Numbered from the stretch's first letter, positions 748 to 60,113 are shown. The stretch: 64,000 bases of DNA from an uncultured Gammaproteobacteria bacterium (GCA_964404275.1 CAYOJH010000004.1:5172-69171); one strand, 5' to 3'. Translations and numbers: made by a program. The notes: generated by a model from the letters alone, not told the origin.

Positions 748-779
748 TGTCATTCCTGCGAAAGCAGGAATCCAGATCC

Positions 780-3042: not shown

Positions 3043-3835
3043 TCAACCTTGCTTGGAAGAAGCGTCGATCGATATTTCGACGCCTTGACCGGCGCCCGTT
3101 CCTTTCTCGGCTCCTTGAGCGGGCTTCTCTTCTTCCGATTTTTCCTCCGTCGTTTTCTCTTTCTTTTCTTTTTCTTCGACTCCGGCGCGCTCTTCTTCCA
3201 GCTTCTTATCGACGCGTTCTTCGGCCTCTTTCGTCAAACTCTTGTCGAATTCTTTCATGAGTTCCGGAAGCTGCTTCAGAATCGCCGGCAAGGCCTTTAT
3301 GCCTTCTTTGAAGGCTGCGGCCAAGCCCTTCGCGGTTTCAGGGCTGAGACCGGAGCCTCCGCCTTCCAATGAGCGGCCGTCGCCGCGCTTTCCGCCTTTC
3401 AACATGCTTGCGAAATCTTTCGAATCCATCGATTCGAATTCCTTGAAAATCTCGTCGATCTTTTCTTGAAGAATTTTTTCTTTCTCTTCTTCGATCAAGC
3501 GTTCTTTCTCCTGGTGGCTGACGAGTTCTTTCTTTTCTTTTTCCAATTCTTCTTGGCGTTCCTCGAGCGCCTCCAGATTTTCCTGGTCCGTTGAAAGGCT
3601 CGGCGGATTTTCCTTGAGCGGCGGCAAGCCCAGCGACTCCCGCGTCTTGTTCAATTCCTTCGAGGTTTCGTCGATGGACTCTCTCAAGTTTTTCGCCTGC
3701 TCCTGCCCGCTTTCAAGCTCGCTTTCCAACCGTTCTTGTTTCCCGCCCGACGATTCAGCCGCCTGCTCTGATCGATGCTCGCTTGGATTCGGCTGGGTTT
3801 CTTGCGCCTTGGGCGCGCCTTCGTATTTGGACATA
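3043..3835 (-). CDS. Glu/Lys-rich coiled-coil hypothetical protein (low complexity); listed ORF extends to 4887 but the upstream part overlaps the tRNA and + strand genes
   Basis: ORF from MSKYEGAPK...; highly charged E/K repeats, locally lower GC from gaa/aag codons. Confidence 0.45.
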
Positions 3836-6121: not shown

Positions 6122-6157
6122 TGACGCAAAAACTGACGGCCGTCAGTTTTTGCGTCA
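6122..6157. repeat. perfect 36-bp palindromic repeat TGACGCAAAAACTGACGGCCGTCAGTTTTTGCGTCA (copy 1 of 4)
   Basis: perfect inverted repeat; related copies at 13309, 40359, 40895. Confidence 0.8.
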
Positions 6158-12758: not shown

Positions 12759-14014
12759 CGGTCATCGCCAGCGCGGCGCTCCTGCCATTCGAACGCCTCG
12801 GCGCCTTCACGCTCGCCGGCGTCAACATCCGGCCGAGCCAGATCGCGCTCGCGATCGCTTGGCTGCTTTGGATCAGGCTCTGGCTCCTCGGCCGGACGAA
12901 ACTCGCTTGGCGCCGTCCCTCCCTCCTCGCGCTGGCCGGTTTTTTCGCGGTCGCGGGCCTTTCGCTGTTGAACGCGGAAAATCTTCCGCGCTCCCTCGTC
13001 GTGCTCGGCTTCACGCTCTTCACCGCCTCGCTCGCGCTCTTGCTTCCCAACGTCATCAAAGACGAGCGCGCCTTCAAGCGCATCCGCGTCGCCATTGTGC
13101 TCTCCGCCGCGCTCGTCTCCTTGCTCGGCCTCTGGCAATTCGTGGCCGACATGCTCGGCGCGCCGCTTTGGATGACCGGATTGCGCGAGACCTATTCGCG
13201 CGCGATCCTCGGCTTCACGCGCGTGCAAGGCGCCTCGGCCGAGCCGCTCTATTTCGCCGACTACCTGCTGCTGCCCATCTCCTTGGTCGTCACCTGGTTG
13301 TTGCGCCATGACGCAAAAACTGACGGCCGTCGGTTTTTGCGCCCCGTGCAAATCCTGCTCGTCGCCATGTTGATTGACGTTTTCCTCACCGCTTCGCGCG
13401 GCGGCTGGCTCGGCCTCGGCGTGACACTCGTCGTGCTGTTGTGGTGCGAACGGAAGCGCTTGAAGGATTGGCGGCCGATCGCGCGGGCGGGCGGAATCGC
13501 CGTCGCGGCGCTCTCGCTTGGCGTGCTTCTGCTCGGAAGTTTCTTTTCTCCGACGCGCGAAACGGTGACGGATATTTTCTTCACCCACGTCACCAACATC
13601 ACGGGCGGCGCGGCGTATGACGACCGCGCGCAAACGATCTCCGCCGCGCTCGACGCCTGGCGCGCGCATCCTTGGATCGGCGTCGGCTTCGGCGGCTACG
13701 GCCCGTTCGTCTCGACCTTCGCCTTCGCCAAACCGGATGCAGGCTGGCCGATCGTGAATAATGAAACGTTGGAACTGCTCGCCGAAACGGGAGTATTTGG
13801 ACTTGTTGCCTTTCTGATCTTCCTCGTCACGCTTATGCATGAAACCAGCGGGCGGCGCAGGCGATATCCGCAGGAGGCAACACGCATCGCTTGCCTCGCG
13901 GCGCTGGCAGGCATGTTGGCGCAGTACCAGACCTTCTCAACCTTGTATATCATGCATGTGTGGTTTACGATCGGCCTGCTTTTAGCCGCGTCTGAGGCTG
14001 GAAAACCGGCTTGA
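12737..14014 (+). CDS. O-antigen ligase / Wzy_C-family membrane protein; carries an in-frame copy of the 36-bp palindromic repeat
   Basis: multi-TM, periplasmic loop with RGGWLGLG; repeat encodes HDAKTDGRRFLRP. Confidence 0.6.
   Translation: MDNALVVAVIASAALLPFERLGAFTLAGVNIRPSQIALAIAWLLWIRLWLLGRTKLAWRRPSLLALAGFFAVAGLSLLNAENLPRSLVVLGFTLFTASLALLLPNVIKDERAFKRIRVAIVLSAALVSLLGLWQFVADMLGAPLWMTGLRETYSRAILGFTRVQGASAEPLYFADYLLLPISLVVTWLLRHDAKTDGRRFLRPVQILLVAMLIDVFLTASRGGWLGLGVTLVVLLWCERKRLKDWRPIARAGGIAVAALSLGVLLLGSFFSPTRETVTDIFFTHVTNITGGAAYDDRAQTISAALDAWRAHPWIGVGFGGYGPFVSTFAFAKPDAGWPIVNNETLELLAETGVFGLVAFLIFLVTLMHETSGRRRRYPQEATRIACLAALAGMLAQYQTFSTLYIMHVWFTIGLLLAASEAGKPA
13309..13342. repeat. copy 2 of the palindromic repeat (slightly degenerate) located inside a CDS, in frame
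   Basis: TGACGCAAAAACTGACGGCCGTCGGTTTTTGCGC. Confidence 0.75.
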
Positions 14015-14059: not shown

Positions 14060-14308
14060 ATGTCCAAAAAACTCCTCTCACCCACCGAAGTTGCAAGCAT
14101 GCTGGGGATCAGCCGGGTGCACGTCTGGCGGAAGATCCAATCAGGCGAAATTCAAGCCGAGAAAGTCGGCAGTCGTTATGTCGTGCCTGCCGATCAGTTC
14201 AAAACGCTTCAACCTTCCGATCCGGTAAGCGAGAATGAAATCGCAAAGGCCGTGAAGAGGGTCGTAAAGGAATACGGCACCACGCTGAAGAAGCTCGGGG
14301 CCGAGTGA
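14060..14308 (+). CDS. helix-turn-helix DNA-binding protein (excisionase/MerR-like HTH_17), putative antitoxin/autoregulator
   Basis: LSPTEVASMLGISRVHVWRKIQSGEI HTH; 2 nt upstream of a Doc-type toxin gene; low GC. Confidence 0.6.
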   Translation: MSKKLLSPTEVASMLGISRVHVWRKIQSGEIQAEKVGSRYVVPADQFKTLQPSDPVSENEIAKAVKRVVKEYGTTLKKLGAE

Positions 14309-14309
14309 T

Positions 14310-14732
14310 ATGACCCGCAGGCTCAATATTGATCATGTCCGTTTCTTGGCGCACGAGCTCGCGCAACGGCTCATGGAGTGGGGTGAACCCATTCCGCCGT
14401 TTGAAACACGTTATCCGGAAAAGCTGGAATCCTGCCTAACGACGCCGTTCGCGACATATGACAAGAAGGAACTCTACCCGACGCTTGAAGAAAAATCCGC
14501 GATCCTGTTCTATTTGATGATCAAAAATCACCCTTTCAAAAACGGGAATAAAAGGGTGGCAGTGACAACTCTTCTTGTTTTTCTCTCCGCCAACGGAAAA
14601 TGGATGAAAGTCGATGAGCAGCAGCTCTATTCTTTCGCCAAGTGGGTGGCGGAGAGCTTGCCGAGTTTGAAAGACGCGACAGTCTTCGCCGTTATTGACT
14701 TCTTAAAAAAACAGATCGTAAACGCTGCATGA
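14310..14732 (+). CDS. Doc/Fic-family toxin (death-on-curing-like)
   Basis: Doc-type motif HPFKNGNKRVAVT; ~140 aa; low GC relative to flanks. Confidence 0.7.
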   Translation: MTRRLNIDHVRFLAHELAQRLMEWGEPIPPFETRYPEKLESCLTTPFATYDKKELYPTLEEKSAILFYLMIKNHPFKNGNKRVAVTTLLVFLSANGKWMKVDEQQLYSFAKWVAESLPSLKDATVFAVIDFLKKQIVNAA

Positions 14733-17129: not shown

Positions 17130-17196
17130 GCAAAGAGCTCCTTTCGCGATCGAGCGCATCCCAACACGCGGAAGCCGCCGCGTCAAGGTGTGGGCC

Positions 17197-17268
17197 GTCA
17201 TTCCGACCGAGCGAAGCGAGCGGAGGAAACCCTCCGGAGGGATCCCTCGGCTGCGCTCGGGATGACAA
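17197..17268. repeat. REP-like element (GTCATTCC...GGGATGACA variant)
   Basis: shares GTCATTCC / CGGGATGACAAAAAA ends with the REP family at 748, 34989, 42264. Confidence 0.5.
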
Positions 17269-20343: not shown

Positions 20344-20359
20344 CAACTCTCCGCATCCA

Positions 20360-20456
20360 CAACTCCCCCTGCCCCCTCTTTAGCAAAGAGGGGGTTTTGG
20401 TTAAAAAATGTCCTCCCCTTTGCTAAAGGGGAGGTGCCGAAGGCGGAGGGGTTGTG
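20360..20456. repeat. ~100-bp double-hairpin repeat element, copy 1 (upstream flank of pilin array)
   Basis: CAACTCCCCCTGCCCCCTCTTTAGCAAAGAGGGGG...CCTCCCCTTTGCTAAAGGGGAGGTGCCGAAGGCGGAGGGGTTGTG; near-identical to 25732..25830. Confidence 0.85.
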
Positions 20457-20472
20457 TTACACTATTTTCACT

Positions 20473-21105
20473 ATGAAGCGTTTTCTCCGCGTCGCCTTGC
20501 CCGTCGCGCTCGTGCTCGTTCCGGTGGCCGTTTCGGCCATCACGATCCTGCCTCCTTGCACGGCCACGGGCGATTGCGGCGTGACGGATATCCTGGCCGT
20601 GCTGGTCAACGTGGCCGAATACCTGCTGGGCATTTCGGGCGCGGTCGCGCTGGCGATGTTCGTCTACGGCGGCTTCACCTTCGTGCTCGCGGCCGGCGAT
20701 AAAACGAAAGTCGGCAAGGCGATCGGCATCCTGAAGAGCGCGGTCATCGGCATCGCCATCATTTTCCTCTCCGGCGTGATCGTGCGCTTCGCGACGAAAG
20801 CGCTGACCGGCGGCAGCTCGGCCATCCCGACCGTCGGCGAGAACTGCGACCCCATCTCGAAAAAGAGCGCGTCGGGAGGAGCCGGCCTCTGGATTTCCGT
20901 GCCGCCCGGCGTCGACGACAACGGCAAGCTCTTGCCGGAACAGTTGATGTGCATCCACAAGAAAGGCGGCTGCGCGGAACTTCAAGGCGTGCTGACCAGC
21001 CGGCATCGATTGGAAAAATATTCTTGCAAAGCGATCAACACCGCCGCGAGCTGCGTGCGCAGCCTATGCCCAGAGCAAGGCGCCGACTACGCCTGCTGCC
21101 TCTGA
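20473..21105 (+). CDS. VirB2/TrbC-like ('T4SS pilin'-like) secreted membrane protein, paralog 1, with C-terminal Cys-rich extension
   Basis: signal peptide; hydrophobic helix-charged loop-helix core ...FVYGGFTFVLAAGDKTKVGKAIGILKSAVIGIAIIFLSGVIV. Confidence 0.65.
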   Translation: MKRFLRVALPVALVLVPVAVSAITILPPCTATGDCGVTDILAVLVNVAEYLLGISGAVALAMFVYGGFTFVLAAGDKTKVGKAIGILKSAVIGIAIIFLSGVIVRFATKALTGGSSAIPTVGENCDPISKKSASGGAGLWISVPPGVDDNGKLLPEQLMCIHKKGGCAELQGVLTSRHRLEKYSCKAINTAASCVRSLCPEQGADYACCL

Positions 21106-21106
21106 T

Positions 21107-22117
21107 ATGAAACGCCTTTCCGTATGTATCGCCGCGATCGTCTTCGGACTTTCTTTGGCGCCGGCGGCCTTCGCCCTCACTCTCCCTTGCTATTGCAAAT
21201 ACGGGGCGAGCAAGGCCGGCTGGGATTCGGATTCGGCGCGTTTCTGCCCGAATGAAACGTATTTCTCGGGTACCGTCGATGCCGGCACGTTCCCGCTCTC
21301 CTATGGCAGCACGGCTGACGACAACTGCCAGGCGCGTTGCGCCTCGGAGGGATCCGCCTTTGTCGATATTACGACCGTTTCTCCGAGTCAGTGGGCTTCC
21401 TTCGGGAGTTCAGACAACCTGGTGCTGGCGGAAAAAAGCTACTGCGTGCTCCGCTCGGACAGCGCCGCGACGGTCCAAGGCTGGTCTTCCAGCTACTTGA
21501 GCTGCAAAAAACCGCTCAACAGCATCGTCTATAAGGACAATCCGACCGGCCAGGTTCCGGACAGCTGCTCGTATTGCTTCTGCAAGTTCAAGACGGGCGG
21601 CTCGACGCCCTCGAGCTGCAGCGGAAAAACGACGATGGTCCACATCACCGGCGACGCGAGCACGTGTTCGAACATCTGCACGAGCTTCGGCCTCGACAAC
21701 GGCGACAGCACGAAAGACTACGGCAGCCATTGCGATTTCCAGCTTTCCGACCAGTGCGCGAAGCCGCTTAACCCCGACGGGAGCGGCTGCCAGTCCGAGC
21801 TCGGGGCCATTTCCGATCAGAAGAAAGCCGACGCCTTCCAGGCCAGCCATGGCACCGCGCTCGGTTTGACGCTGCCGCTCGGCGACATCACCTTTCCGCA
21901 GCTGATCGGCCGCGTCATCAAGCAGCTGCTCGGCATCGTCGGCGCCTTGGCGCTCGTCTTCTTCATCTGGGGCGGCCTCAAATACATGACGGCCCAAGGC
22001 GACGACAAGAAAATCAAAGAGGCGCGCGACATGATCGTCGCCGCCATTTCCGGCTTGGCCGCGATCTTCCTGTCCTACGCGCTCCTGACACTGCTCATCA
22101 ATACGCTGTCGAAATAG
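21107..22117 (+). CDS. VirB2/TrbC-like pilin paralog 2 with large N-terminal Cys-rich domain
   Basis: signal peptide, ~20 Cys, C-terminal core LLGIVGALALVFFIWGGLKYMTAQGDDKKIKEARDMIVAAISGLAAIFLSYALL. Confidence 0.65.
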   Translation: MKRLSVCIAAIVFGLSLAPAAFALTLPCYCKYGASKAGWDSDSARFCPNETYFSGTVDAGTFPLSYGSTADDNCQARCASEGSAFVDITTVSPSQWASFGSSDNLVLAEKSYCVLRSDSAATVQGWSSSYLSCKKPLNSIVYKDNPTGQVPDSCSYCFCKFKTGGSTPSSCSGKTTMVHITGDASTCSNICTSFGLDNGDSTKDYGSHCDFQLSDQCAKPLNPDGSGCQSELGAISDQKKADAFQASHGTALGLTLPLGDITFPQLIGRVIKQLLGIVGALALVFFIWGGLKYMTAQGDDKKIKEARDMIVAAISGLAAIFLSYALLTLLINTLSK

Positions 22118-22118
22118 T

Positions 22119-22487
22119 ATGAAACGCAAGATTGCCCGCCTTCTCTCGACGCTCGTCATCTTCGCCGCAAGCGCGTCCGGAGCCTTGGCCGATACCGGTT
22201 CAAGTGCCACGAGTTCCTCCGACAAGACCGTCAGATTGGTGAATCCGCTTAACGTTTCGACGGTGCCCCAGCTCGTGGCCAACCTGCTCAAGGCCGCCAT
22301 GGGGATCATCGGCGCCTTGGCACTCTTGGTCTTCATCTACGGGGGATTCATTTGGTTGACCTCGGGAGGCGAGGCTGGTAAAATTCAGGCAGGCAAAGAC
22401 GCCATGAAGTGGGCGGCGATCGGACTCGTCGTGATCTTCACCAGTTACGCGCTCGTCAGTTTCGTGTTCAAAGCGATAACGGGCTAA
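22119..22487 (+). CDS. VirB2/TrbC-like pilin paralog 3
   Basis: signal peptide + core GIIGALALLVFIYGGFIWLTSGGEAGKIQAGKDAMKWAAIGLVVIFTSYALV. Confidence 0.65.
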   Translation: MKRKIARLLSTLVIFAASASGALADTGSSATSSSDKTVRLVNPLNVSTVPQLVANLLKAAMGIIGALALLVFIYGGFIWLTSGGEAGKIQAGKDAMKWAAIGLVVIFTSYALVSFVFKAITG

Positions 22488-22509
22488 CGCCTGAAAGGAG
22501 GTGAGTTGC

Positions 22510-22899
22510 ATGACGAAAAAAACGCTTATCAAGGGTCTGATCAGCACGGCAATGGTTGCGACAATGGCGCTCCCCATGGTCGCTTTGGCTCAAAACCCCG
22601 TGACGTCCAACGAACTTCTGCCCGGCCAGATCGCCACCGAGCTCGGCCAGCAGCAGCAGGACCTGCGCATCACCATCGCGAGAATCATCCGCACGGCCAT
22701 GAGCCTTCTGGGCATCGTCGCCGTTCTGATCATTCTGTACGGCGGCTTCAAGTGGATGACCTCCGGCGGATCCGACGAAGCCACGGGCGACGCGAAGAAG
22801 ATCATTACGGCCGGCGTGATCGGTCTCGTGATCATTCTGACCGCGTACGCGATCGCTTCCTTCGTGATCAACAGCCTCGTAACCGCGACCTCCCAGTAA
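22510..22899 (+). CDS. VirB2/TrbC-like pilin paralog 4
   Basis: RBS AAAGGAGGTGA 8 nt upstream; core LLGIVAVLIILYGGFKWMTSGGSDEATGDAKKIITAGVIGLVIILTAYAIA. Confidence 0.65.
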   Translation: MTKKTLIKGLISTAMVATMALPMVALAQNPVTSNELLPGQIATELGQQQQDLRITIARIIRTAMSLLGIVAVLIILYGGFKWMTSGGSDEATGDAKKIITAGVIGLVIILTAYAIASFVINSLVTATSQ

Positions 22900-22910
22900 C
22901 GCATCTTTAC

Positions 22911-22982
22911 GCGACCCTGCACCGTATGGTGCAGGGTCGTCGCAAGGACTCGGGAAATGCCCTGCACCGTACGGTGCAGGGC
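22911..22982 (+). repeat. two tandem hairpins CCCTGCACC-N4/5-GGTGCAGGG between pilin paralogs 4 and 5, no T-tract
   Basis: same hairpin family as 3903 and 44355. Confidence 0.6.
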
Positions 22983-23013
22983 GCCTCCGGACTCCTTGAA
23001 CCTCGAACCACGT

Positions 23014-23514
23014 ATGCGCTTGAAACGCATTCTCCTCCCCGCGCTCTGCCTGGCGGCGACCGCCCTGATGGCGATCCCGCTCGCCCACGCAGCCAGCGAC
23101 CATTTCGGACTCGACACCGCCGCCGGCGGCGCCGGCCTCAAGAATCTGGACTTGCCGACGACGATCGGCGTCCTGATCAAGAGCGTGCTCAGCTTCCTCG
23201 GCATCCTCTTCCTGGTACTCACGCTCTACGCCGGCTTCCTCTACATGACGGCCCAAGGCGACGAGAAGAAGGTCGCCAAGGCCAAGAGCATCGTGACCGG
23301 CGCGGTCATCGGCCTGGTCATCATCGCCGCCTCCTACGCGATCACGAGCTTCGTCCTCGGCGCGATCACCGGCACCGCGAGCACGTCCAACACCTCGAAC
23401 ACTTCCAATACGTCGACGATCGGCACGGTCCAGAAAGGCGGCGCGTGCACGAGCGGAAGCGATTGCGCCGCCGGCCTGATCTGCGACATCGGAGGATCCA
23501 ATACCTGCATCTGA
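23014..23514 (+). CDS. VirB2/TrbC-like pilin paralog 5 with C-terminal (TSN)n repeat and Cys-containing tail
   Basis: core FLGILFLVLTLYAGFLYMTAQGDEKKVAKAKSIVTGAVIGLVIIAASYAIT. Confidence 0.65.
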   Translation: MRLKRILLPALCLAATALMAIPLAHAASDHFGLDTAAGGAGLKNLDLPTTIGVLIKSVLSFLGILFLVLTLYAGFLYMTAQGDEKKVAKAKSIVTGAVIGLVIIAASYAITSFVLGAITGTASTSNTSNTSNTSTIGTVQKGGACTSGSDCAAGLICDIGGSNTCI

Positions 23515-23515
23515 T

Positions 23516-23854
23516 ATGCGCACTCTCCACAAACTCGCCCAGGACTTCGGAGCCGGAAATCTCAAAACCGTCGGCGATACGGCCAAGATCACCTCGAACG
23601 TCACGCTGCCCGTCCTGATCGGCAACCTGATCCGCACGTTCATCGGGCTCCTCGGCATCATCTTCCTCCTGCTCACGGTCTACGCCGGTTTCCTCTGGCT
23701 GACGGCCCAAGGCGACGAGAAGAAGGTCGAGCATGCCAAAGGCCTGCTCAAGAACGCCGTGATCGGCCTCGTGATCATCGCCGCCGCCTACGCCATCTCC
23801 GCCTTCGTCGTCAACGCGCTCGCCCACGTGGCCGGCGGCACGAATCCCACCTAA
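23516..23854 (+). CDS. VirB2/TrbC-like pilin paralog 6
   Basis: core FIGLLGIIFLLLTVYAGFLWLTAQGDEKKVEHAKGLLKNAVIGLVIIAAAYAIS. Confidence 0.65.
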   Translation: MRTLHKLAQDFGAGNLKTVGDTAKITSNVTLPVLIGNLIRTFIGLLGIIFLLLTVYAGFLWLTAQGDEKKVEHAKGLLKNAVIGLVIIAAAYAISAFVVNALAHVAGGTNPT

Positions 23855-23876
23855 CCTCGCTCATCATTTACCTTCT

Positions 23877-24299
23877 ATGGCGAAAAAAATCCTTCTGGGG
23901 CTGCTCTCGCTCCTGACCGTCGGCCAAATGGCCTTGGCCGCGCTGCCCGCCGGCGCGCAGGCTCCCTGCGATCCTTCGACCGGCAACTCGCTCGGCTGTC
24001 TCAGCGCCGCGAATCCCAGCAACACGCCGACCGACGCGGTCACGGCCGGCCAGCAGCTGCCGCTCCTGATCGGACGCCTCATCCGCACGATGCTCGGTCT
24101 CCTCGGCATCATCTTCCTGGTCCTGATGGTCTACGCCGGCTTCCTCTGGATGACGGCCCGCGGCGATGACGAACCCGTCACGAAAGCCAAAGACATCATC
24201 CGCCAGGCGATCATCGGCCTCATCATCGTCTTCGTCGCCTACGCCTTGACCGGCTTCATCATCAACGCGGTGCTCCGCGCCACCTCGGGAACGCCATAA
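23877..24299 (+). CDS. VirB2/TrbC-like pilin paralog 7
   Basis: signal peptide; core MLGLLGIIFLVLMVYAGFLWMTARGDDEPVTKAKDIIRQAIIGLIIVFVAYALT. Confidence 0.65.
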   Translation: MAKKILLGLLSLLTVGQMALAALPAGAQAPCDPSTGNSLGCLSAANPSNTPTDAVTAGQQLPLLIGRLIRTMLGLLGIIFLVLMVYAGFLWMTARGDDEPVTKAKDIIRQAIIGLIIVFVAYALTGFIINAVLRATSGTP

Positions 24300-25701: not shown

Positions 25702-25731
25702 CTTGGACAGGCGGAACGTCTCCGCGGCCAA

Positions 25732-25830
25732 CAACTCCCCCTGCCCCCTCTTTAGCAAAGAGGGGGTTTTTAAATGTCCTCCCCTTTGCTAAAGGGGAGG
25801 TGCCCGAAGGGCGGAGGGGTTGTGGCCGCG
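25732..25830. repeat. ~100-bp double-hairpin repeat element, copy 2 (downstream flank of pilin array), direct orientation
   Basis: near-identical to 20360..20456. Confidence 0.85.
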
Positions 25831-31016: not shown

Positions 31017-31363
31017 CTCCATGCGTTTGCGGAGATGTTCTGCAGGAAATCGCGCTCAAGAAGATGTCTTATAGAAGCGTTCGAGCCGGGGCCCGAAGTA
31101 CCCTATGAGACATCTCCATGCTTGTCGTGAGCGCGAGTTTCTACAGACCAAGAATGTTTGGATCCGAAACGGTCGGCCGTGACAGGAATGCGGAGCGCGG
31201 TGCTCAAGCAACGCCGCACTCTACCACGGGGTCGAAAGGCTGTCAAGAAATTGAGCCGGTGTTTCACGTCATTGTTTCATGTTTTACTGACATTTTTAAG
31301 GCGGACTTGCTCAATTTAAGCTTGATTTTAAGGCTTTTATTTGTCTGTTACCATTGACAAAAC

Positions 31364-33750: not shown

Positions 33751-34046
33751 TCGTTCCTTCCGTCAACTCTTTCCCCAGGGACTTCGGTTCCTGGGCTCTC
33801 ACCCGGCACTTCTGTAGAATATCTGCAGGAGCCCCGAGCCGGAGCCCACACTTGCGAAAGGACAACGCCGTGAACCCCATCGTTCCTTCGAACAGCAATC
33901 TTCCCGACGGTCCGGAGATCTTCCGCAAGGACACGACGCACTCCGGCGTGCTCCACGCGCGCAAGCTCTACCGCGACTACCTCGAGCGCCTCGCCTCCGG
34001 CGAGATCCGCAACGAGAACGACGACGACGCGCAGGAGGCCGCTTAG

Positions 34047-34256
34047 ATGAAGCACTCCTTCAACACGTCGATCATCGTCGGCTTCTTCATGGGGCTGACC
34101 GGCCTCCTGACGATCGTCGCGACCTGCGCGCTCTACGAGGCCGGAGTGACCGTCTCGGACGGGCTCAGCTCCAGCGCGCCGAGCGTCGAGAAGAAATTTC
34201 CGGCGCACCCGCGCCACGAAGTCCAGCCCGCCCTGCCGGTCGCCCTCAACCCGTGA
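34047..34256 (+). CDS. small membrane protein
   Basis: one TM helix. Confidence 0.3.
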   Translation: MKHSFNTSIIVGFFMGLTGLLTIVATCALYEAGVTVSDGLSSSAPSVEKKFPAHPRHEVQPALPVALNP

Positions 34257-34309
34257 CGCATCTCGTCACGGAACAAAAACCCGCGCCTCTCAGCGCGGGT
34301 TTATGACAT

Positions 34310-34930
34310 TCAGGATTTCTTGATGATCTTGTCGATCAAGCCGTACTTCTTGGCTTCGTCGGCCGTCATGAAGTTGTCGCGATCCGTGTCTTTGTCGATC
34401 TTATTGAACGGCTGCCCGGTCGCCTTCGACAGGATCTGGTTGAGCGAGTCCTTCATCTTCAGGATGCGCTCCGCGCGGATCTTGATGTCGGAGGCTTGGC
34501 CTTCGGCGCCGCCGAGCACCTGGTGGATCATGATCTCGGAATTCTCGAGCGCGAAGCGCTTGCCTTTCTGGCCGCCGGCCAGAAGCACCGCGCCCATCGA
34601 AGCCGCCATGCCGACGCAGATCGTCGAAACGTCCGGCTTGATGTAGTTCATCGTGTCGAGAATCGCGAGGCCGGCCGTGACGGAACCGCCCGGCGAGTTG
34701 ACGTAGATCTTGATGTCGCGCTCCTTGTCCTGGCTTTCGAGGAACAAGAGCTGGGCGATCACGATGTTGGCGACGTGATCGTCGATGCCTTCGCCCAGGA
34801 AGATGATGCGGTCCTTGAGCAGGCGCGAATAAATATCATACGCGCGTTCGCCCTGCGGCGTCTTCTCGATGACGGTCGGGATCAAATAATTGTTCTGCGG
34901 AAACGAATTGATGGCGTAGGGATTTTTCAT
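34310..34930 (-). CDS. clpP: ATP-dependent Clp protease proteolytic subunit
   Basis: catalytic Ser motif GMAASMGA and His in IMIHQ; ~200 aa. Confidence 0.9.
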
Positions 34931-34988
34931 ACAGGTAAAGTATATCGCTAGGCCGTTCCTTTGACAAAGACGCACGAGGGCTTGGGTT

Positions 34989-35160
34989 ATGTCATCCCTG
35001 CGAAAGCAGGGATCCAGTACCGCCAGAAGTCGTTATTGAACTGGATTCCAGCTTGCGCTGGAATGACAAGGGGGCGTGCGTCGAGCCGTGCATGTCATCC
35101 CTGCGAAAGCAGGGGGCAGCACTTACACATGTCATCCCTGCGAAAGCAGGGATCCAGTAC
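34989..35160. repeat. cluster of four REP-like hairpin repeats (TGTCATCCCTGCGAAAGCAGGGATCCAGTAC and variant GGATTCCAGCTTGCGCTGGAATGACA)
   Basis: copies at 34989-35019, 35038-35070, 35093-35119, 35129-35160; family also at 748-775, 35451-35482, 42264-42289, 17197-17268. Confidence 0.75.
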
Positions 35161-35163
35161 CTA

Positions 35164-35448
35164 TCAAAAATTATAGGATAGATCCTTCCAATCCGGATTT
35201 TCCCTCTCGATCAATTGGATTTTCCAATCACGTTTCCAAGCCTTCAGCTGTTTCTCGCGCTGAATGGCAGAAAACACATCGCTTGTTTCTTCAAAATAAA
35301 CGAGTGTCTTTAAACCATACGTTCGCGTGAACCCCGCCACCACTCCGGCCCGATGTTCCGTGATCCGTCGCAAGAGATCGTTTGTCACACCAATGTACAG
35401 TGCTCCACCGAGCCGATTTGTCAGAATATACACGTAGTACGTGCGCAT
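35164..35448 (-). CDS. GIY-YIG nuclease-domain protein (~94 aa)
   Basis: YYVYILTNRLGGALYIGVTNDLLRRITEH...REKQLKAW; bracketed by REP-like repeats. Confidence 0.75.
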   Translation of the reverse strand: MRTYYVYILTNRLGGALYIGVTNDLLRRITEHRAGVVAGFTRTYGLKTLVYFEETSDVFSAIQREKQLKAWKRDWKIQLIERENPDWKDLSYNF

Positions 35449-35450
35449 AG

Positions 35451-35482
35451 GTACTGGATTCCAGCTTGCGCTGGAATGACAT
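35451..35482. repeat. REP-like repeat (CCAGCTTGCGCTGG variant) abutting the GIY-YIG start
   Basis: GTACTGGATTCCAGCTTGCGCTGGAATGACAT. Confidence 0.7.
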
Positions 35483-35509
35483 ACCTCTACGCTCGCACGC
35501 AAGCCTTCT

Positions 35510-36529
35510 TCAAAGCGCCGGCAGGTCGAATTGGGGGCCGAGGTCGGCGCGTTCGACGGTCCAGCCGTTCGGATGTTCGACGATCGCGCCGTCGACGGTG
35601 AAGCCCGCGGCTTTGCGATGACCTCCCCCGCCGTAGGTCTTGGCCATTTCGGCCACGTCGGCATCGGTCGCGCTGCGGTAACTGCCTTTGACCCGATGGC
35701 GGCCCAGCTCTTTCAGCACCAGCACCACGTCGGCTTGCAGCAGATGATTCAAAAAGTTCGAGAGGCCTTCCAGATATTCGTCGTCGACCGGATGATCGTT
35801 GAAGTCGCTGCGGAAGAGCGCGGTCGAAGCGAGTTTCTTTTCGGGATCGAAACGTAGACGCTCGAGCGCGCGGCCCCAGAGCTTGAGCGCGTCGACCGGC
35901 TTGTTGCGCATCAGGCGCTTGGTGATATCGCGAATCGAGACGCCTTTGAGCAAAAGCTCGGAAGCGATCTCCAAGCTCTTCACCGTCGTGGCGGGGTTAG
36001 AAAAATTCGACGTGTCGGTCAGGAGGCCGGTCATGAGGCAGACCGCCATCTCGCGCGAGACGTCCGCGCCGTTGTCGTCGAAAAATTCATGCACGACTTC
36101 GGCCGTCGAGGAGGCGTCGGTGATGACGAGGTTCGCGTCGCCGAAGAGCGCGTTGGTGACGTGATGATCGAAGTTCGCGATGAACGGTTTCTTCGGCATG
36201 GCGGCCACGAGCGCGTCGATACCGGCGTAGGCCAAGTCGCCCGCGTCGAACACGCACAGCGCGTCGACGGCTTCGTCCTTGAAAATCGCCGTGACATTCG
36301 TCACCTCCTTGAAACGCGGAAAGTACGCGTAGGCCGAGGCCGGCTCGTCGATGCAGAACGCATGGGCTTCGCGGCCCTGATCGCGCAGCCAATTGTAGAC
36401 CGCCATCATGCCGCCGAGCGTGTCGCCGTCGGGCTTGCGGTGCGAAACCAGAATCGGCTTCCGCGCGTGGGAAAGCTTTTCGAAGATGCGTTTTGACGTC
36501 GCGAGATGCGGCATAAGGTCAAAGTCCAT
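35510..36529 (-). CDS. DHH-family phosphoesterase (NrnA-like oligoribonuclease/pAp phosphatase), canonical motifs
   Basis: DxD (HRKPDGDTLGG) and DHH (NFDHHVTN) motifs, DHHA1-like C-terminus with GGGH. Confidence 0.75.
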   Translation of the reverse strand: MDFDLMPHLATSKRIFEKLSHARKPILVSHRKPDGDTLGGMMAVYNWLRDQGREAHAFCIDEPASAYAYFPRFKEVTNVTAIFKDEAVDALCVFDAGDLAYAGIDALVAAMPKKPFIANFDHHVTNALFGDANLVITDASSTAEVVHEFFDDNGADVSREMAVCLMTGLLTDTSNFSNPATTVKSLEIASELLLKGVSIRDITKRLMRNKPVDALKLWGRALERLRFDPEKKLASTALFRSDFNDHPVDDEYLEGLSNFLNHLLQADVVLVLKELGRHRVKGSYRSATDADVAEMAKTYGGGGHRKAAGFTVDGAIVEHPNGWTVERADLGPQFDLPAL

Positions 36530-40338: not shown

Positions 40339-40358
40339 ATGTCTTGGTCAAAAACACG

Positions 40359-40394
40359 TGACGTAAATTCTGACGGCCGTCAGTTTTTGCGTCA
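40359..40394. repeat. palindromic repeat copy 3 (TGACGTAAATTCTGACGGCCGTCAGTTTTTGCGTCA)
   Basis: right arm identical to copy 1, left arm variant. Confidence 0.75.
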
Positions 40395-40790
40395 GGGTTC
40401 CCGGATCGAAAAAATCCGAATCCAGCCATCGAGCTTCGATCGACGGGTCCAGAGATGGAGTTTCTCGGCGATGCATTTGTCGGATATCCAGACGCTTCCC
40501 TGAAGGCGGCGGCAACCGATCGCGCGCAGCAAATCGCGGAAGGCGGCGCGGACATGCCGTTGCGACTCCGGAATGTCGAAAGCGACCAGCGTGCGGAAAC
40601 CGTCCGTCCGAAGGGGCGAGGTCTTCAGTGCGTGTCGCAAGCGCGCCGCTTCTCCTTGCGCCGTGCACACCAAAAGCAGCCGACCGCCGCGCCGTCTGGC
40701 CTCCAAAAGGCCTCTTCGCTTCAGATCGCGGATGCGACGCCGTAGCTTGCGGAAACGTTCTTCCTCGGCAATCCGCCGCAATCCCTCCAT
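40392..40790 (-). CDS. small regulator-like protein (basic wHTH-like N-terminus, C-terminal segment weakly Cas2/VapD-like), start uncertain (track ORF to 40940 runs into repeat)
   Basis: ...LVAFDIPESQRHVRAAFRDLLRAIGCRRLQGSVWIS...; flanked by direct copies of the palindromic repeat. Confidence 0.35.
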   Translation of the reverse strand: MEGLRRIAEEERFRKLRRRIRDLKRRGLLEARRRGGRLLLVCTAQGEAARLRHALKTSPLRTDGFRTLVAFDIPESQRHVRAAFRDLLRAIGCRRLQGSVWISDKCIAEKLHLWTRRSKLDGWIRIFSIREP

Positions 40791-40894
40791 CCCTTGCGAA
40801 ATGGCGACTCTGGGATATCGCCGCGTGCCATAGAGGAACAGCTTTCCGTCCGAGGCCGCCTGCAGCAAAGCCCCGGTCAGCCATTTGGCGACGG

Positions 40895-40930
40895 GGCGCG
40901 AATTCTGACGGCCGTCAGTTTTTGCGTCAC
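40895..40930. repeat. palindromic repeat copy 4 (GCGCGAATTCTGACGGCCGTCAGTTTTTGCGTCA), direct with copy 3
   Basis: identical 29-bp core to copy 3. Confidence 0.75.
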
Positions 40931-40987
40931 GGGCGCGCATATGCCACCGCCTACGCGAAGTCGTGCTTCGCTGTCAATAAAAAACGA

Positions 40988-42153: not shown

Positions 42154-42263
42154 GAGGCCGATATACGCCACCTTGACGCTTTTGTCAATCTCCTTTATAG
42201 TGGCCCCGTTCGCGCTGCAGAACCGCGGGAAGCTCTCACCTCGCGCTTCTACACATACGTAAT

Positions 42264-42289
42264 GGATCCCTGCGTTCGCAGGGATGACA
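42264..42289. repeat. REP-like repeat (GGATCCCTGCGTTCGCAGGGATGACA) just upstream of rpsP
   Basis: inverted orientation of the TGTCATCCCTGCG family. Confidence 0.65.
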
Positions 42290-47474: not shown

Positions 47475-47530
47475 TGCCTCCCCTTTGCTAAAGGGGAGGT
47501 GCCCGCAGGGCGGAGGGGTTGTGGCCGCGA
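47475..47530. repeat. partial third copy of the ~100-bp element (second hairpin + GGCGGAGGGGTTGTGGCCGCG tail)
   Basis: TGCCTCCCCTTTGCTAAAGGGGAGGTGCCCGCAGGGCGGAGGGGTTGTGGCCGCG. Confidence 0.8.
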
Positions 47531-58853: not shown

Positions 58854-59912
58854 TTACAGCTGATGGTGTTTCGCTCGTTCAACCATGAACTTCACCGCGT
58901 CATTGGCATTGACGTATTCGATGAGTAGGTCCGGGTGGCGTTTCTGAAATACCCGGAACACCTCGTCAGCAAATGCCTGACCGACAGAGGGTACGCGCTC
59001 GAAGTCTAGGACGATCTGCTTGAATTTATCGAGTCCCGTAAGGAGGCGTCGGGCTTGCGAACGAGAAATTTGTGCTGTGCCATAACGGTATAATTTCACG
59101 TGCACCACTGTTCTATCGAAGGCCGGCTCTTCAACATCGATGGAAAAAGGCCGGAATACGTCACGATCAAGGTGCCTATCGGAGTTGAGGGCGATCTCAA
59201 AGATAACCTTGGTGCCGGTATGCGCGGAGATCTCTTCTAGGAATGTATCGGGAATCCGATTATCCACGGTGAGCATGAGCGTTCCGCTTTCGAGCATGAA
59301 GAGATCGCCGGATTTCGAGGTGAAGAAGATGCCCTCACCACTATGTCGGTCGGGAACCGTCGTCGTTTTCCCTTTCAACACGTCAAGAGCAGCTTCATAT
59401 TGGCTCTCCAAGCGTCTTTTCCACATCACGTTTTCAAAAGCACCGATCCCCCTGTCTTCAACCTCGAACCTCAATTTGCCGTCTCCAATTTCTACCGTGG
59501 TCCTGATAGTGTCTGATTGCGAATGATCTATTGCATTATTTACCATTTCCGAAAATGCATAATCAAAAATACTGCGTACGTTTTCATGCAGTACGCCGAG
59601 TTTCGGTAAATCTCTGACCACCTCATCGTAAACGTCTGCTTCGCTCAAGTCCGTATTACGAAACGTTTTTTCCCATTTCGAAGCGGTGTGTAAAATTGCC
59701 GACGCATTTTTCTCTGTCGCGGCAACATAGTAGGCTCCGCGCGTTATACCAATCTTCAGAATCCTCTTTTGTCCCAATAGCTGGCCAATAATATGCCTGG
59801 CCAGCTTGGCATGGCCTGGAAAAAAAACGATAACTTCGCGTGCTTTGAACTCGCGGCGCTCATCGAGTAATTCTTCGATTTTCTGCCTAATTTTCGTTGA
59901 GATATCAGACAT
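58854..59912 (-). CDS. wHTH + GHKL (HATPase_c-like) + C-terminal STAS-like (DUF4325-type) protein; low-GC
   Basis: N box MVNNAIDHS, G1 VEDRGIGA, G2 GEGIFFT; C-term FERVPSVGQAFADEVFRVF; GC visibly lower than flanks. Confidence 0.5.
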   Translation of the reverse strand: MSDISTKIRQKIEELLDERREFKAREVIVFFPGHAKLARHIIGQLLGQKRILKIGITRGAYYVAATEKNASAILHTASKWEKTFRNTDLSEADVYDEVVRDLPKLGVLHENVRSIFDYAFSEMVNNAIDHSQSDTIRTTVEIGDGKLRFEVEDRGIGAFENVMWKRRLESQYEAALDVLKGKTTTVPDRHSGEGIFFTSKSGDLFMLESGTLMLTVDNRIPDTFLEEISAHTGTKVIFEIALNSDRHLDRDVFRPFSIDVEEPAFDRTVVHVKLYRYGTAQISRSQARRLLTGLDKFKQIVLDFERVPSVGQAFADEVFRVFQKRHPDLLIEYVNANDAVKFMVERAKHHQL

Positions 59913-60113
59913 GGACGTGGTATCTACTAATAATCTACCAATATATACTAATCTTGTCAAGACCTATTTACTAATATATATCAATTATCGGGTTAAGAAT
60001 ATTGACAGGTGGGGCGCCACTTGATATCTTTTGCCTGTATTTAACTCCGGCCGCGACGCTTGGTTTCAGCCTCGAGCGGGCTCCTACTCGGCACGACGGC
60101 ATATAAAAGACGT

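Follow-up and report, generated by a model that had tools for sequence, protein, structure and literature searches.

Chenal et al. (2025; Nat Commun, PMC11893778) tie the hairpin repeat NTS (CGTCATTCCCGCGMAVGCGGGAATCYRG) across bacteria to ssnA, a gene for a 94-aa nuclease that consists of a single GIY-YIG domain. Related hairpins, the Ssn-related motifs (SRMs), lie near 71% of the genes for Ssn homologs and on both sides of 42% of them. In this work, we analyze a locus on a 64,000-nt stretch of DNA from an uncultured bacterium (CAYOJH010000004.1:5172-69171; the whole stretch is termed the window), in which copies of a hairpin repeat surround a 94-aa GIY-YIG gene, here termed ssn. With a probability of roughly nine in ten the locus is a Ssn-SRM module with the NTS-ssnA-NTS architecture in a genome of the Patescibacteria. 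The partnership of gene and repeat as well as the activity of the enzyme have been known since 2025, and the window provides a further case.

According to the same source, SsnA binds its hairpin solely as single-stranded DNA (ssDNA), on one strand, and cuts a few nucleotides upstream of it; the enzyme is inactive on double-stranded DNA (dsDNA) and neither binds nor acts on RNA. Cutting depends on the three bases ahead of the palindrome, binding on the C behind it, and each of the exchanges Y6A, Y17A and E64A abolishes cleavage. Site- and strand-specific cleavage of ssDNA was demonstrated for four homologs; characterized enzymes are those of Neisseria and Wolbachia. In Neisseria meningitidis SsnA makes transformation by NTS-bearing DNA about five times less frequent. 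The authors liken NTS-ssnA-NTS to an insertion sequence and suggest domestication, leaving mobility as a hypothesis (Chenal et al., 2025). A literature search for later papers on the question of Ssn mobility found none.

An earlier classification of repetitive extragenic palindromes (REPs) describes elements with a terminal CGTC tag, often TGTC, stems of 8-9 bp with A-T pairs in the first two positions, loops of 4-5 nt and a CCA tail (Di Nocera, De Gregorio & Rocco, 2013; BMC Genomics, PMC3733652). These CGTC REPs are intergenic, occur mostly as inverted dimers in five phyla, mainly in Alphaproteobacteria, and apparently have no dedicated transposase. As far as the available text of the 2025 article goes, this classification is not cited there, and Patescibacteria are not mentioned.

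The ssn gene and its hairpins

The product of the window gene shares 49.4% identity over residues 6-94 (89 aa) with the SsnA ortholog of N. gonorrhoeae (tblastn, E = 4e-21), a match obtained in the chromosome NZ_CP119142.1 within a 7.3-Gb plasmid collection, and pairwise comparison of the two proteins gave E = 2e-31. Both values lie far below 1e-10, the limit that Chenal et al. (2025) set for homology to SsnA. The gonococcal protein served as reference in place of N. meningitidis SsnA; its numbering reproduces Y6, Y17 and E64, with which Y7, Y18 and E65 of the window protein align. Its reading frame comprises 94 codons, with NTS copies on both sides. The GIY-YIG domain as defined by Pfam spans residues 4-77 of the window protein and is not accompanied by any other significant domain. 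An identical 94-aa protein is present among the NCBI records, and no family-level name is given for it in NCBIfam.

In a sequence search of PDB the nearest structures were UPF0213 proteins (1zg2 and 1ywl; 26 bits, compared with 92 bits to Neisseria SsnA), so that a structure of Ssn itself is not to be had by sequence. Like the window protein, UPF0213 or YhbQ-type proteins are stand-alone GIY-YIG domains of about 100 aa. The relationship is distant, and because the UPF0213 structures match only at E = 8e-5, the window protein is not counted among them. We know of no hairpin-repeat partner of the UPF0213 family.

Two side observations concern the gonococcal reference. Two 2.17-Mb chromosomes of N. 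gonorrhoeae are filed as plasmids in PLSDB. At the reference locus (L096; NZ_CP119142.1, 1881119-1882585), a nearby ATG (position 594) lies in a frame other than the conserved one of ssnA (from 601), so that the gonococcal gene may be frameshifted or start elsewhere.

The repeat unit of the window has a length of 28-31 nt and is built from the tag TGTC, the 5' arm ATYCCWGC, the loop GNAN, the 3' arm GCWGGRAT and the tail CCAG(TAC). When the region 34989-35482 is read directly, variants A and B prove to be a single repeat read on the two strands, with compensatory changes in the stem; type A is composed of TGTC, ATCCCTGC, GAAA, GCAGGGAT and CCAG. Pattern searches of the 64-kb window yielded four matches to variant A (at most three mismatches) and three to variant B, compared with 0.00 expected in either case from 100 shuffles. 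A Hamming scan of the window with the 31-nt unit returned seven copies, all of them intergenic, including one dimer and the pair at the ends of the hairpin-ssn-hairpin cassette. An earlier note on this DNA had counted at least eight; seven of these stand, with coordinates right to within 1-5 nt, and the site at 17197 belongs to a different, long-loop subtype. Every full copy, folded as ssDNA, has a stem of 8 bp and a loop of 4 nt, with energies of -7.6 to -9.6 kcal/mol and z values between -3.3 and -5.8.

Five copies cluster at 34990-35481 on both sides of the open reading frame (ORF), as had been noticed before. A 36-nt inverted repeat (35129-35164 and 35447-35482, 86% complementary) encloses the ORF; its hairpins lie 2-3 nt from either end of the ORF and carry unpaired TGTC tags that are directed outward; the three further copies are found within 175 nt. 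The hairpin directly upstream of ssn (-9.6 kcal/mol, z = -5.8) ends 2 nt from the ATG, in agreement with the earlier statement that a repeat abuts the start codon. In the shortened copy nearby the tag, the 5' arm, the loop and most of the 3' arm are present and the ATCCAG tail is gone. The two halves of the gene-less dimer face each other with their tails over 17 nt, and the dimer as a whole can form one long ssDNA hairpin (-19.3 kcal/mol, z = -4.4). Its ends are A and B in the same relative order as at the ends of the ssn cassette, and it resembles a REPIN or a MITE (miniature transposable element with inverted repeats).

The GC content of the ssn ORF amounts to 46.7%, compared with 61.3% for the window, and its GC content at third codon positions to 52%, compared with 80-86% in the neighbouring genes, so that its base composition appears foreign to the host. 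A tblastn search of the 64-kb window for a second ssn gene or a fragment thereof was negative. An Rfam scan of 34000-36500 at E values up to 5 gave chance-level matches only and no described RNA family; without a T-run, the hairpins do not qualify as intrinsic terminators. The features of the window are compiled in Table 1.

Table 1. The ssn gene, its neighbours and the copies of the hairpin repeat, in positions of the window
Feature	Position	Strand	Basis and remarks
ssn gene, single-domain GIY-YIG nuclease	35164-35448	-	94 aa; Pfam PF01541, E = 7e-17
Type-B SRM hairpin TGTCATTCCAGCGCAAGCTGGAATCCAGTAC	35451-35481	- (gene's strand)	Hamming scan; promoter-proximal arm of the 36-nt inverted repeat
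Type-A SRM hairpin TGTCATCCCTGCGAAAGCAGGGATCCAGTAC	35130-35160	+ (opposite to gene)	Immediately behind the stop codon; forms the inverted repeat's distal arm
Type-A copy, shortened	35093-35123	+	Hamming scan; 8 mismatches, all in the 3' part
Gene-less dimer, 79 bp	34990-35068	type A 34990-35020 (+), type B 35038-35068 (-)	Hamming scan
Solo SRM copy	748-778	+	In the 33 nt that separate a thioredoxin-like ORF from the following ORF; 2 compensatory mismatches to type A
Solo SRM copy, GAAC loop	42259-42289	-	6 nt upstream of the start codon of rpsP (ribosomal protein S16)
Tail-to-tail dimer of long-loop SRM-like hairpins (CGTCATTCCGACCGAGCGAAGCGAG... and, on the other strand, TGTCATCCCGAGCGCAGCCGAGGGATCC)	17196-17267	both	Sequence and fold
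Upstream neighbour, DHH/DHHA1 phosphoesterase (NrnA-like)	35510-36514	-	Pfam; 334-aa gene call in L001
Downstream neighbour, clpP	34310-34933	-	Pfam

The copy in the rpsP leader was found where the earlier note had placed it. The copy at 748, which had been taken for the 5' end of an ORF, plays this part only under the longest reading of that ORF (from ATG 747); a start at ATG 780, past the repeat, is equally possible. The long-loop dimer at 17196-17267 has only the ends GTCATYCC and GGRATGAC in common with the main repeat. It belongs to the same superfamily as another subtype and resembles the hairpins that flank ssn in the relative L085; a cognate ssn gene for it is absent from the 64-kb window. 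Between the repeat cluster and clpP, a promoter scan revealed a promoter-like site (TTGTCA-17-TATACT, 34967-34939).

Compared with the Ssn-SRM systems described by Chenal et al. (2025), the window locus has in common the 94-aa single GIY-YIG domain with the conserved catalytic Y, Y and E, the hairpins on both flanks of the gene with their (C/T)GTC tag, an 8-bp stem starting with AT, a 4-nt loop and a C-rich tail, and the extra copies that are dispersed in intergenic DNA. Type A (35130-35160) shares 23 of 28 positions with the Neisseria NTS consensus, and of the five differences four make up two compensatory stem pairs. Of the window copies, the two of type B match the published SRM pattern HGTCWYN(0-2)YYVSBRHN(0-5)WNVSBRGN(0-2)RNCYNB. 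Unlike the published systems, the window locus resides in a member of the Patescibacteria, or candidate phyla radiation, its flanking hairpins are of the two subtypes A and B, the stem of type A lying outside that pattern, and abut the start and stop codons, and a gene-less A/B dimer lies beside the cassette. The repeat corresponds exactly to the description of family CGTC-1 of Di Nocera et al. (2013), with its TGTC tag, A-T pairs in the first two stem positions, 4-nt loop and CCA-like tail. In contrast to the 2013 account, the repeats of the window have a partner gene, as they do in the 2025 article.

The earlier note had proposed a comparison with the REP/RAYT paradigm, which holds for the layout and fails for the enzyme and the tag. 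As in REP/RAYT systems and the IS200/IS605 Y1 elements, a small nuclease gene is flanked by hairpins that are also dispersed and form inverted gene-less doublets, and an unpaired guide tag on an ssDNA hairpin is recognized, for Ssn on the strength of the published enzymes. Ssn is a GIY-YIG hydrolase and not an HUH/Y1 transposase, however, and the tag is CGTC or TGTC instead of GTAG. The window locus thus resembles a REPtron in layout only.

Three points weigh against the assignment to the Ssn-SRM family. First, the protein is placed there by its homology to the SsnA ortholog, and the class that defines the family according to Chenal et al. (2025) is cd10448 (GIY-YIG_unchar_3), so that membership is best called probable. 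Second, the type-A and solo copies fall outside the published SRM pattern, which found two true matches and one probable chance match in the 64-kb window and missed 34990-35017, 35130-35157, 748-775 and 42262-42289. These copies escape because their stem has a T-A pair where the pattern demands S (G/C); it follows from this requirement that surveys with the pattern under-count SRMs in some lineages. Third, the hairpin past the stop codon of N. gonorrhoeae ssnA is direct and not inverted, which makes the inverted bracket a common but not a universal feature.

By homology to the Neisseria and Wolbachia enzymes, Ssn of the window would recognize its cognate hairpin only in ssDNA, via the unpaired 5' tag (T/C)GTC, the 8-bp stem starting with AT and the C right after the stem, and would hydrolyse this strand at a point a few nucleotides 5' of the tag. 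Since the tags of the bracketing hairpins point outward, cuts are predicted immediately outside the cassette, one per strand. Candidate further targets are the 79-bp dimer, the shortened copy and the two solo copies (748 and 42259). Cutting of SRM-bearing ssDNA, for instance of incoming transforming strands, may modulate recombination around SRM-marked loci, if the analogy to the studied systems holds.

Pairing of ssn genes and hairpins in other genomes

Among the candidates scored, 2640 relatives of the 94-aa protein were found at E values up to 0.001, most of them 93-110 aa in length and many residing on very short contigs. A scan with one genome per species gave 80 loci at 53-65% identity, spanning Actinomycetota, Proteobacteria, Cloacimonadota, Saccharibacteria, Omnitrophota, Dehalococcoidia, Flavobacteriia, Spirochaetes and others. 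The sample for the analysis of gene-hairpin association consisted of 83 homologous genes in 80 species-level genomes (L003-L082). Within 70 nt on either side of their ORFs a TGTCAT-hairpin-ATCCAG arrangement recurs before the start codon and a CTGGAT-hairpin-ATGACA arrangement after the stop codon.

A structural detector (GTC[AG][TC]; stem of 6 bp or more, beginning immediately behind GTC; 3-30 nt of loop; C) found a hairpin no more than 150 nt upstream on the strand of the gene in 59 of the 83 cases and downstream on the other strand in 56. Both sides were occupied in 47 and at least one side in 68 cases (82%), which agrees with the 71% and 42% that Chenal et al. (2025) give for nearby and two-sided hairpins. 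Hairpin density beside the gene amounts to 7.2 per kb, compared with 0.17 per kb at distances of more than 400 nt, that is, 42-fold more. Together with the published pairing, this bears out the earlier suggestion that the repeats and the GIY-YIG gene belong together. The arrangement as inverted repeats with outward tags is preferred but not exclusive, as hairpins on the opposite strands were detected upstream in 11 and downstream in 25 cases. In 80 of the 83 cases the ssn ORF is more AT-rich than its flanks (median -10.7 GC points), irrespective of whether the host has a high or a low GC content, a property that we did not find in the available text of Chenal et al. (2025).

Several individual loci deserve mention on their own account. 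In Flavivirga sp. (L032, 1489-2811) three hairpin-ssn-hairpin units are repeated in tandem about every 503 bp, and their flanks are nearly identical. A metagenome-assembled genome (MAG) of the Omnitrophota (L012, 892-1788) contains two neighbouring ssn genes, each with its own hairpin subtype, one with a long loop (ATTCTGAGCGAAGCGAAGAAT) and the other with 8-bp CCCGC stems, which fits the coexistence of cognate enzyme-hairpin pairs in one genome. In Bradyrhizobium (L027 versus L054, also L034, L045 and L053), the flanking DNA that some species have upstream of ssn is found downstream of it, and inverted, in others. This suggests inversion of the hairpin-bounded cassette in place; in other respects the locus is syntenic across species.

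One spacer in different states and the question of mobility

The closest named relatives of the DHH protein encoded next to ssn are a "Patescibacteria group bacterium" (80% identity) and Candidatus Uhrbacteria (about 46-54% identity), and to judge by these sequences the host is a Patescibacteria bacterium. The DHH gene served as anchor for the comparison of orthologous sites in relatives with 74-84% DHH identity. In L083, L088, L089 and L094/95, DHH is followed by a terminator, a gene for 235-253 aa on the opposite strand and clpP, with neither hairpin nor ssn; in L092, likewise devoid of both, only 43 nt separate DHH and clpP. In L084 the spacer carries nothing but a solo long-loop hairpin. 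L091 has the B-ssn-A cassette of the window, with a 73% identical Ssn and about 397 nt that are missing from L089. L085 and L087 contain a relic B hairpin at the same position, followed by another cassette, whose hairpins have long loops and whose Ssn is only 51% identical, and L085 differs from L083 by an indel of about 434 nt despite 99% identical ClpP proteins. In the window the B-ssn-A cassette is accompanied by the shortened A copy and the A/B dimer, and the gene on the opposite strand is missing. The distribution of the B-ssn-A cassette over the window and L091 departs from the DHH tree. As the spacer is empty in several close relatives, the cassette was gained and is not a fixed feature of the lineage; in places it was, to judge by the compared spacers, also lost or replaced, by whatever mechanism.

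Some observations at the same spacer stand apart from this comparison. The gene on the opposite strand has no match in Pfam; it is present in L083 (5029-5790), L085 (5465-6202), L089 (4030-4755), L091 (2685-3428) and L095 (1020-1760) and absent from the window, L084 and L092. The ssn ortholog of L091 (2327-2660), which is uncalled in the assembly, has no stop codon, and its ORF runs on through the downstream hairpin; such loss of the stop codon probably explains the homolog variants of 105-133 aa.

It has to be asked whether the hairpin-ssn-hairpin cassette is or was mobile, an idea that would add to its interpretation as a Ssn-SRM module. Ssn would then spread both the cassette and gene-less dimers in a RAYT-like manner, nicks outside each end on opposite strands starting a copying or transfer process that is carried out by host replication and repair. 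We hold this to be possible but doubtful. The same idea was raised as a hypothesis by the authors of the Ssn article (Chenal et al., 2025; PMC11893778), and no transposase is given for the CGTC REPs by Di Nocera et al. (2013; PMC3733652). In its favor are the terminal inverted repeat of 36 nt around one small ORF, the neighbouring 79-bp gene-less dimer with the same A and B ends, the empty, solo-hairpin or differently occupied orthologous spacers, the departure of the B-ssn-A distribution from the DHH tree, the AT-richness of the ssn ORFs and the occurrence of about 60% identical proteins in unrelated phyla. Furthermore, two paralogs in one MAG (L036 and L074, 81% identical) have homology that extends from 2 nt before TGTCAT exactly to ATGACA. 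The short-read contigs L001, L002 and L086, which are independent assemblies, end (3') inside the SRM hairpin next to ssn, and these breaks hint at multi-copy hairpins in the genomes concerned.

On the other hand, GIY-YIG enzymes are hydrolases for which we know of no strand-transfer or covalent-intermediate chemistry, so that, unlike for RAYT, strand transfer is left unexplained, and a lone 94-aa domain cannot make a complete transposase. None of the copies in the window shows a visible target-site duplication. In L085 and L091 the inserted blocks reach past the hairpins by about 30 nt and 15-24 nt, sequences that are also missing from the empty sites, which means that the moved unit is not simply the segment from hairpin to hairpin. 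In a second pair of paralogs (L038 and L070) homology extends well beyond the hairpins, the Bradyrhizobium locus is syntenic across species as expected under vertical descent, and homologous recombination via the flanking genes could yield the same patchy distribution. The proposal that Ssn is the missing mobilising enzyme of the CGTC-tagged REPs, with the cassette of about 350 bp as autonomous element and the dimers as its non-autonomous derivatives, must be considered tentative in the same measure.

The earlier note had also brought a homing-type element into play, which did not survive. A free-standing GIY-YIG homing endonuclease, with the repeats as remnants of target or homing sites, would be compatible with the superfamily, with a weak partial match to group I intron endonucleases and with the foreign base composition, and the window protein does share the catalytic motif and a link with selfish DNA with enzymes of the I-TevI type. 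Unlike these multi-domain dsDNA cutters, which are encoded in or beside introns, it is a bare catalytic domain of 94 aa without NUMOD, IENR or any other DNA-binding domain; the match to TIGR01453 attains 17.8 bits, compared with a cut-off of 56 bits, and covers 28 residues of the catalytic motif only. The locus, the intergenic spacer between DHH and clpP, contains neither an intron or intein nor an interrupted host gene. According to PMC11893778, the characterized homing enzymes of the superfamily are multi-domain, and the characterized homologs of the window protein do not cleave dsDNA but ssDNA only (Chenal et al., 2025). We therefore reject a homing endonuclease as highly improbable, given the single domain, the score below cut-off, the intergenic site and relatives specific for ssDNA.

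It is similarly hard to believe that the repeats are ordinary REP-type regulatory or structural hairpins (mRNA stabilisers, attenuators or protein-binding sites) that lie by chance beside an unrelated nuclease gene: such roles are credited to REPs generally, all copies of the window are intergenic and those 6 nt before rpsP and at the start of ssn could affect translation, but pairing in 68 of 83 homolog loci from many phyla with 42-fold local enrichment and a preferred orientation, together with the direct binding and cleavage of the hairpin and the failure of its RNA form to be bound that PMC11893778 reports (Chenal et al., 2025), led us to reject a chance cluster. In addition, in an assembled set of 84 distinct hairpins of the class with 8-bp stem and 4-nt loop, a set that was chosen for pairing, the stems vary by compensatory change while tag and tail, both unpaired, are kept, which points to recognition by a protein and not to structure alone.

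Further repeats of the window and meaning of the probable Ssn-SRM module

The window contains other repeats that are independent of the SRM hairpins. A second, unrelated palindromic family (TGACGCAAAAACTGACGGCCGTCAGTTTTTGCGTCA, 36-42 nt) has four copies that are 76-97% alike (6122-6157, 13306-13347, 40356-40397 and 40891-40932), two of them 535 nt apart. A third module with two G/C-rich hairpins, CCCCCTCTTTAGCAAAGAGGGGG followed by CCTCCCCTTTGCTAAAGGGGAGG...GGCGGAGGGGTTGTG, is present in two to three copies of up to 100% identity (20359-20464, 25731-25830 and 47477-47529). Tandem paralogous short coding units with a period of about 450-490 nt and 60-78% DNA identity occupy 20620-24270 and look like a run of genes for small membrane proteins. 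Islands of low GC content (0.40-0.49 compared with a mean of 0.61) are located at 59250-60000 and also at 14300-14600, 31100-31300 and 3300-3450; they deviate as much as the ssn cassette or more and may be further acquired DNA.

The genomes of Patescibacteria are tiny, and these organisms are thought to depend on DNA that is taken up. The locus described here extends the Ssn-SRM system to this group, in which a nuclease specific for ssDNA could matter. It also joins two literatures that do not cite each other, since the CGTC-tagged REPs, for which no dedicated enzyme was given in 2013, are Ssn-related motifs. The pair of A and B hairpins is a candidate for a new cleavage specificity that may be of use for ssDNA tools. 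The different states of the DHH-clpP spacer, which is empty, carries a solo hairpin, the same cassette or a different one, provide natural material on the question whether Ssn spreads repeats. If it does, this would amount to a class of mobile elements that is driven by a GIY-YIG ssDNA nuclease instead of a transposase or recombinase.

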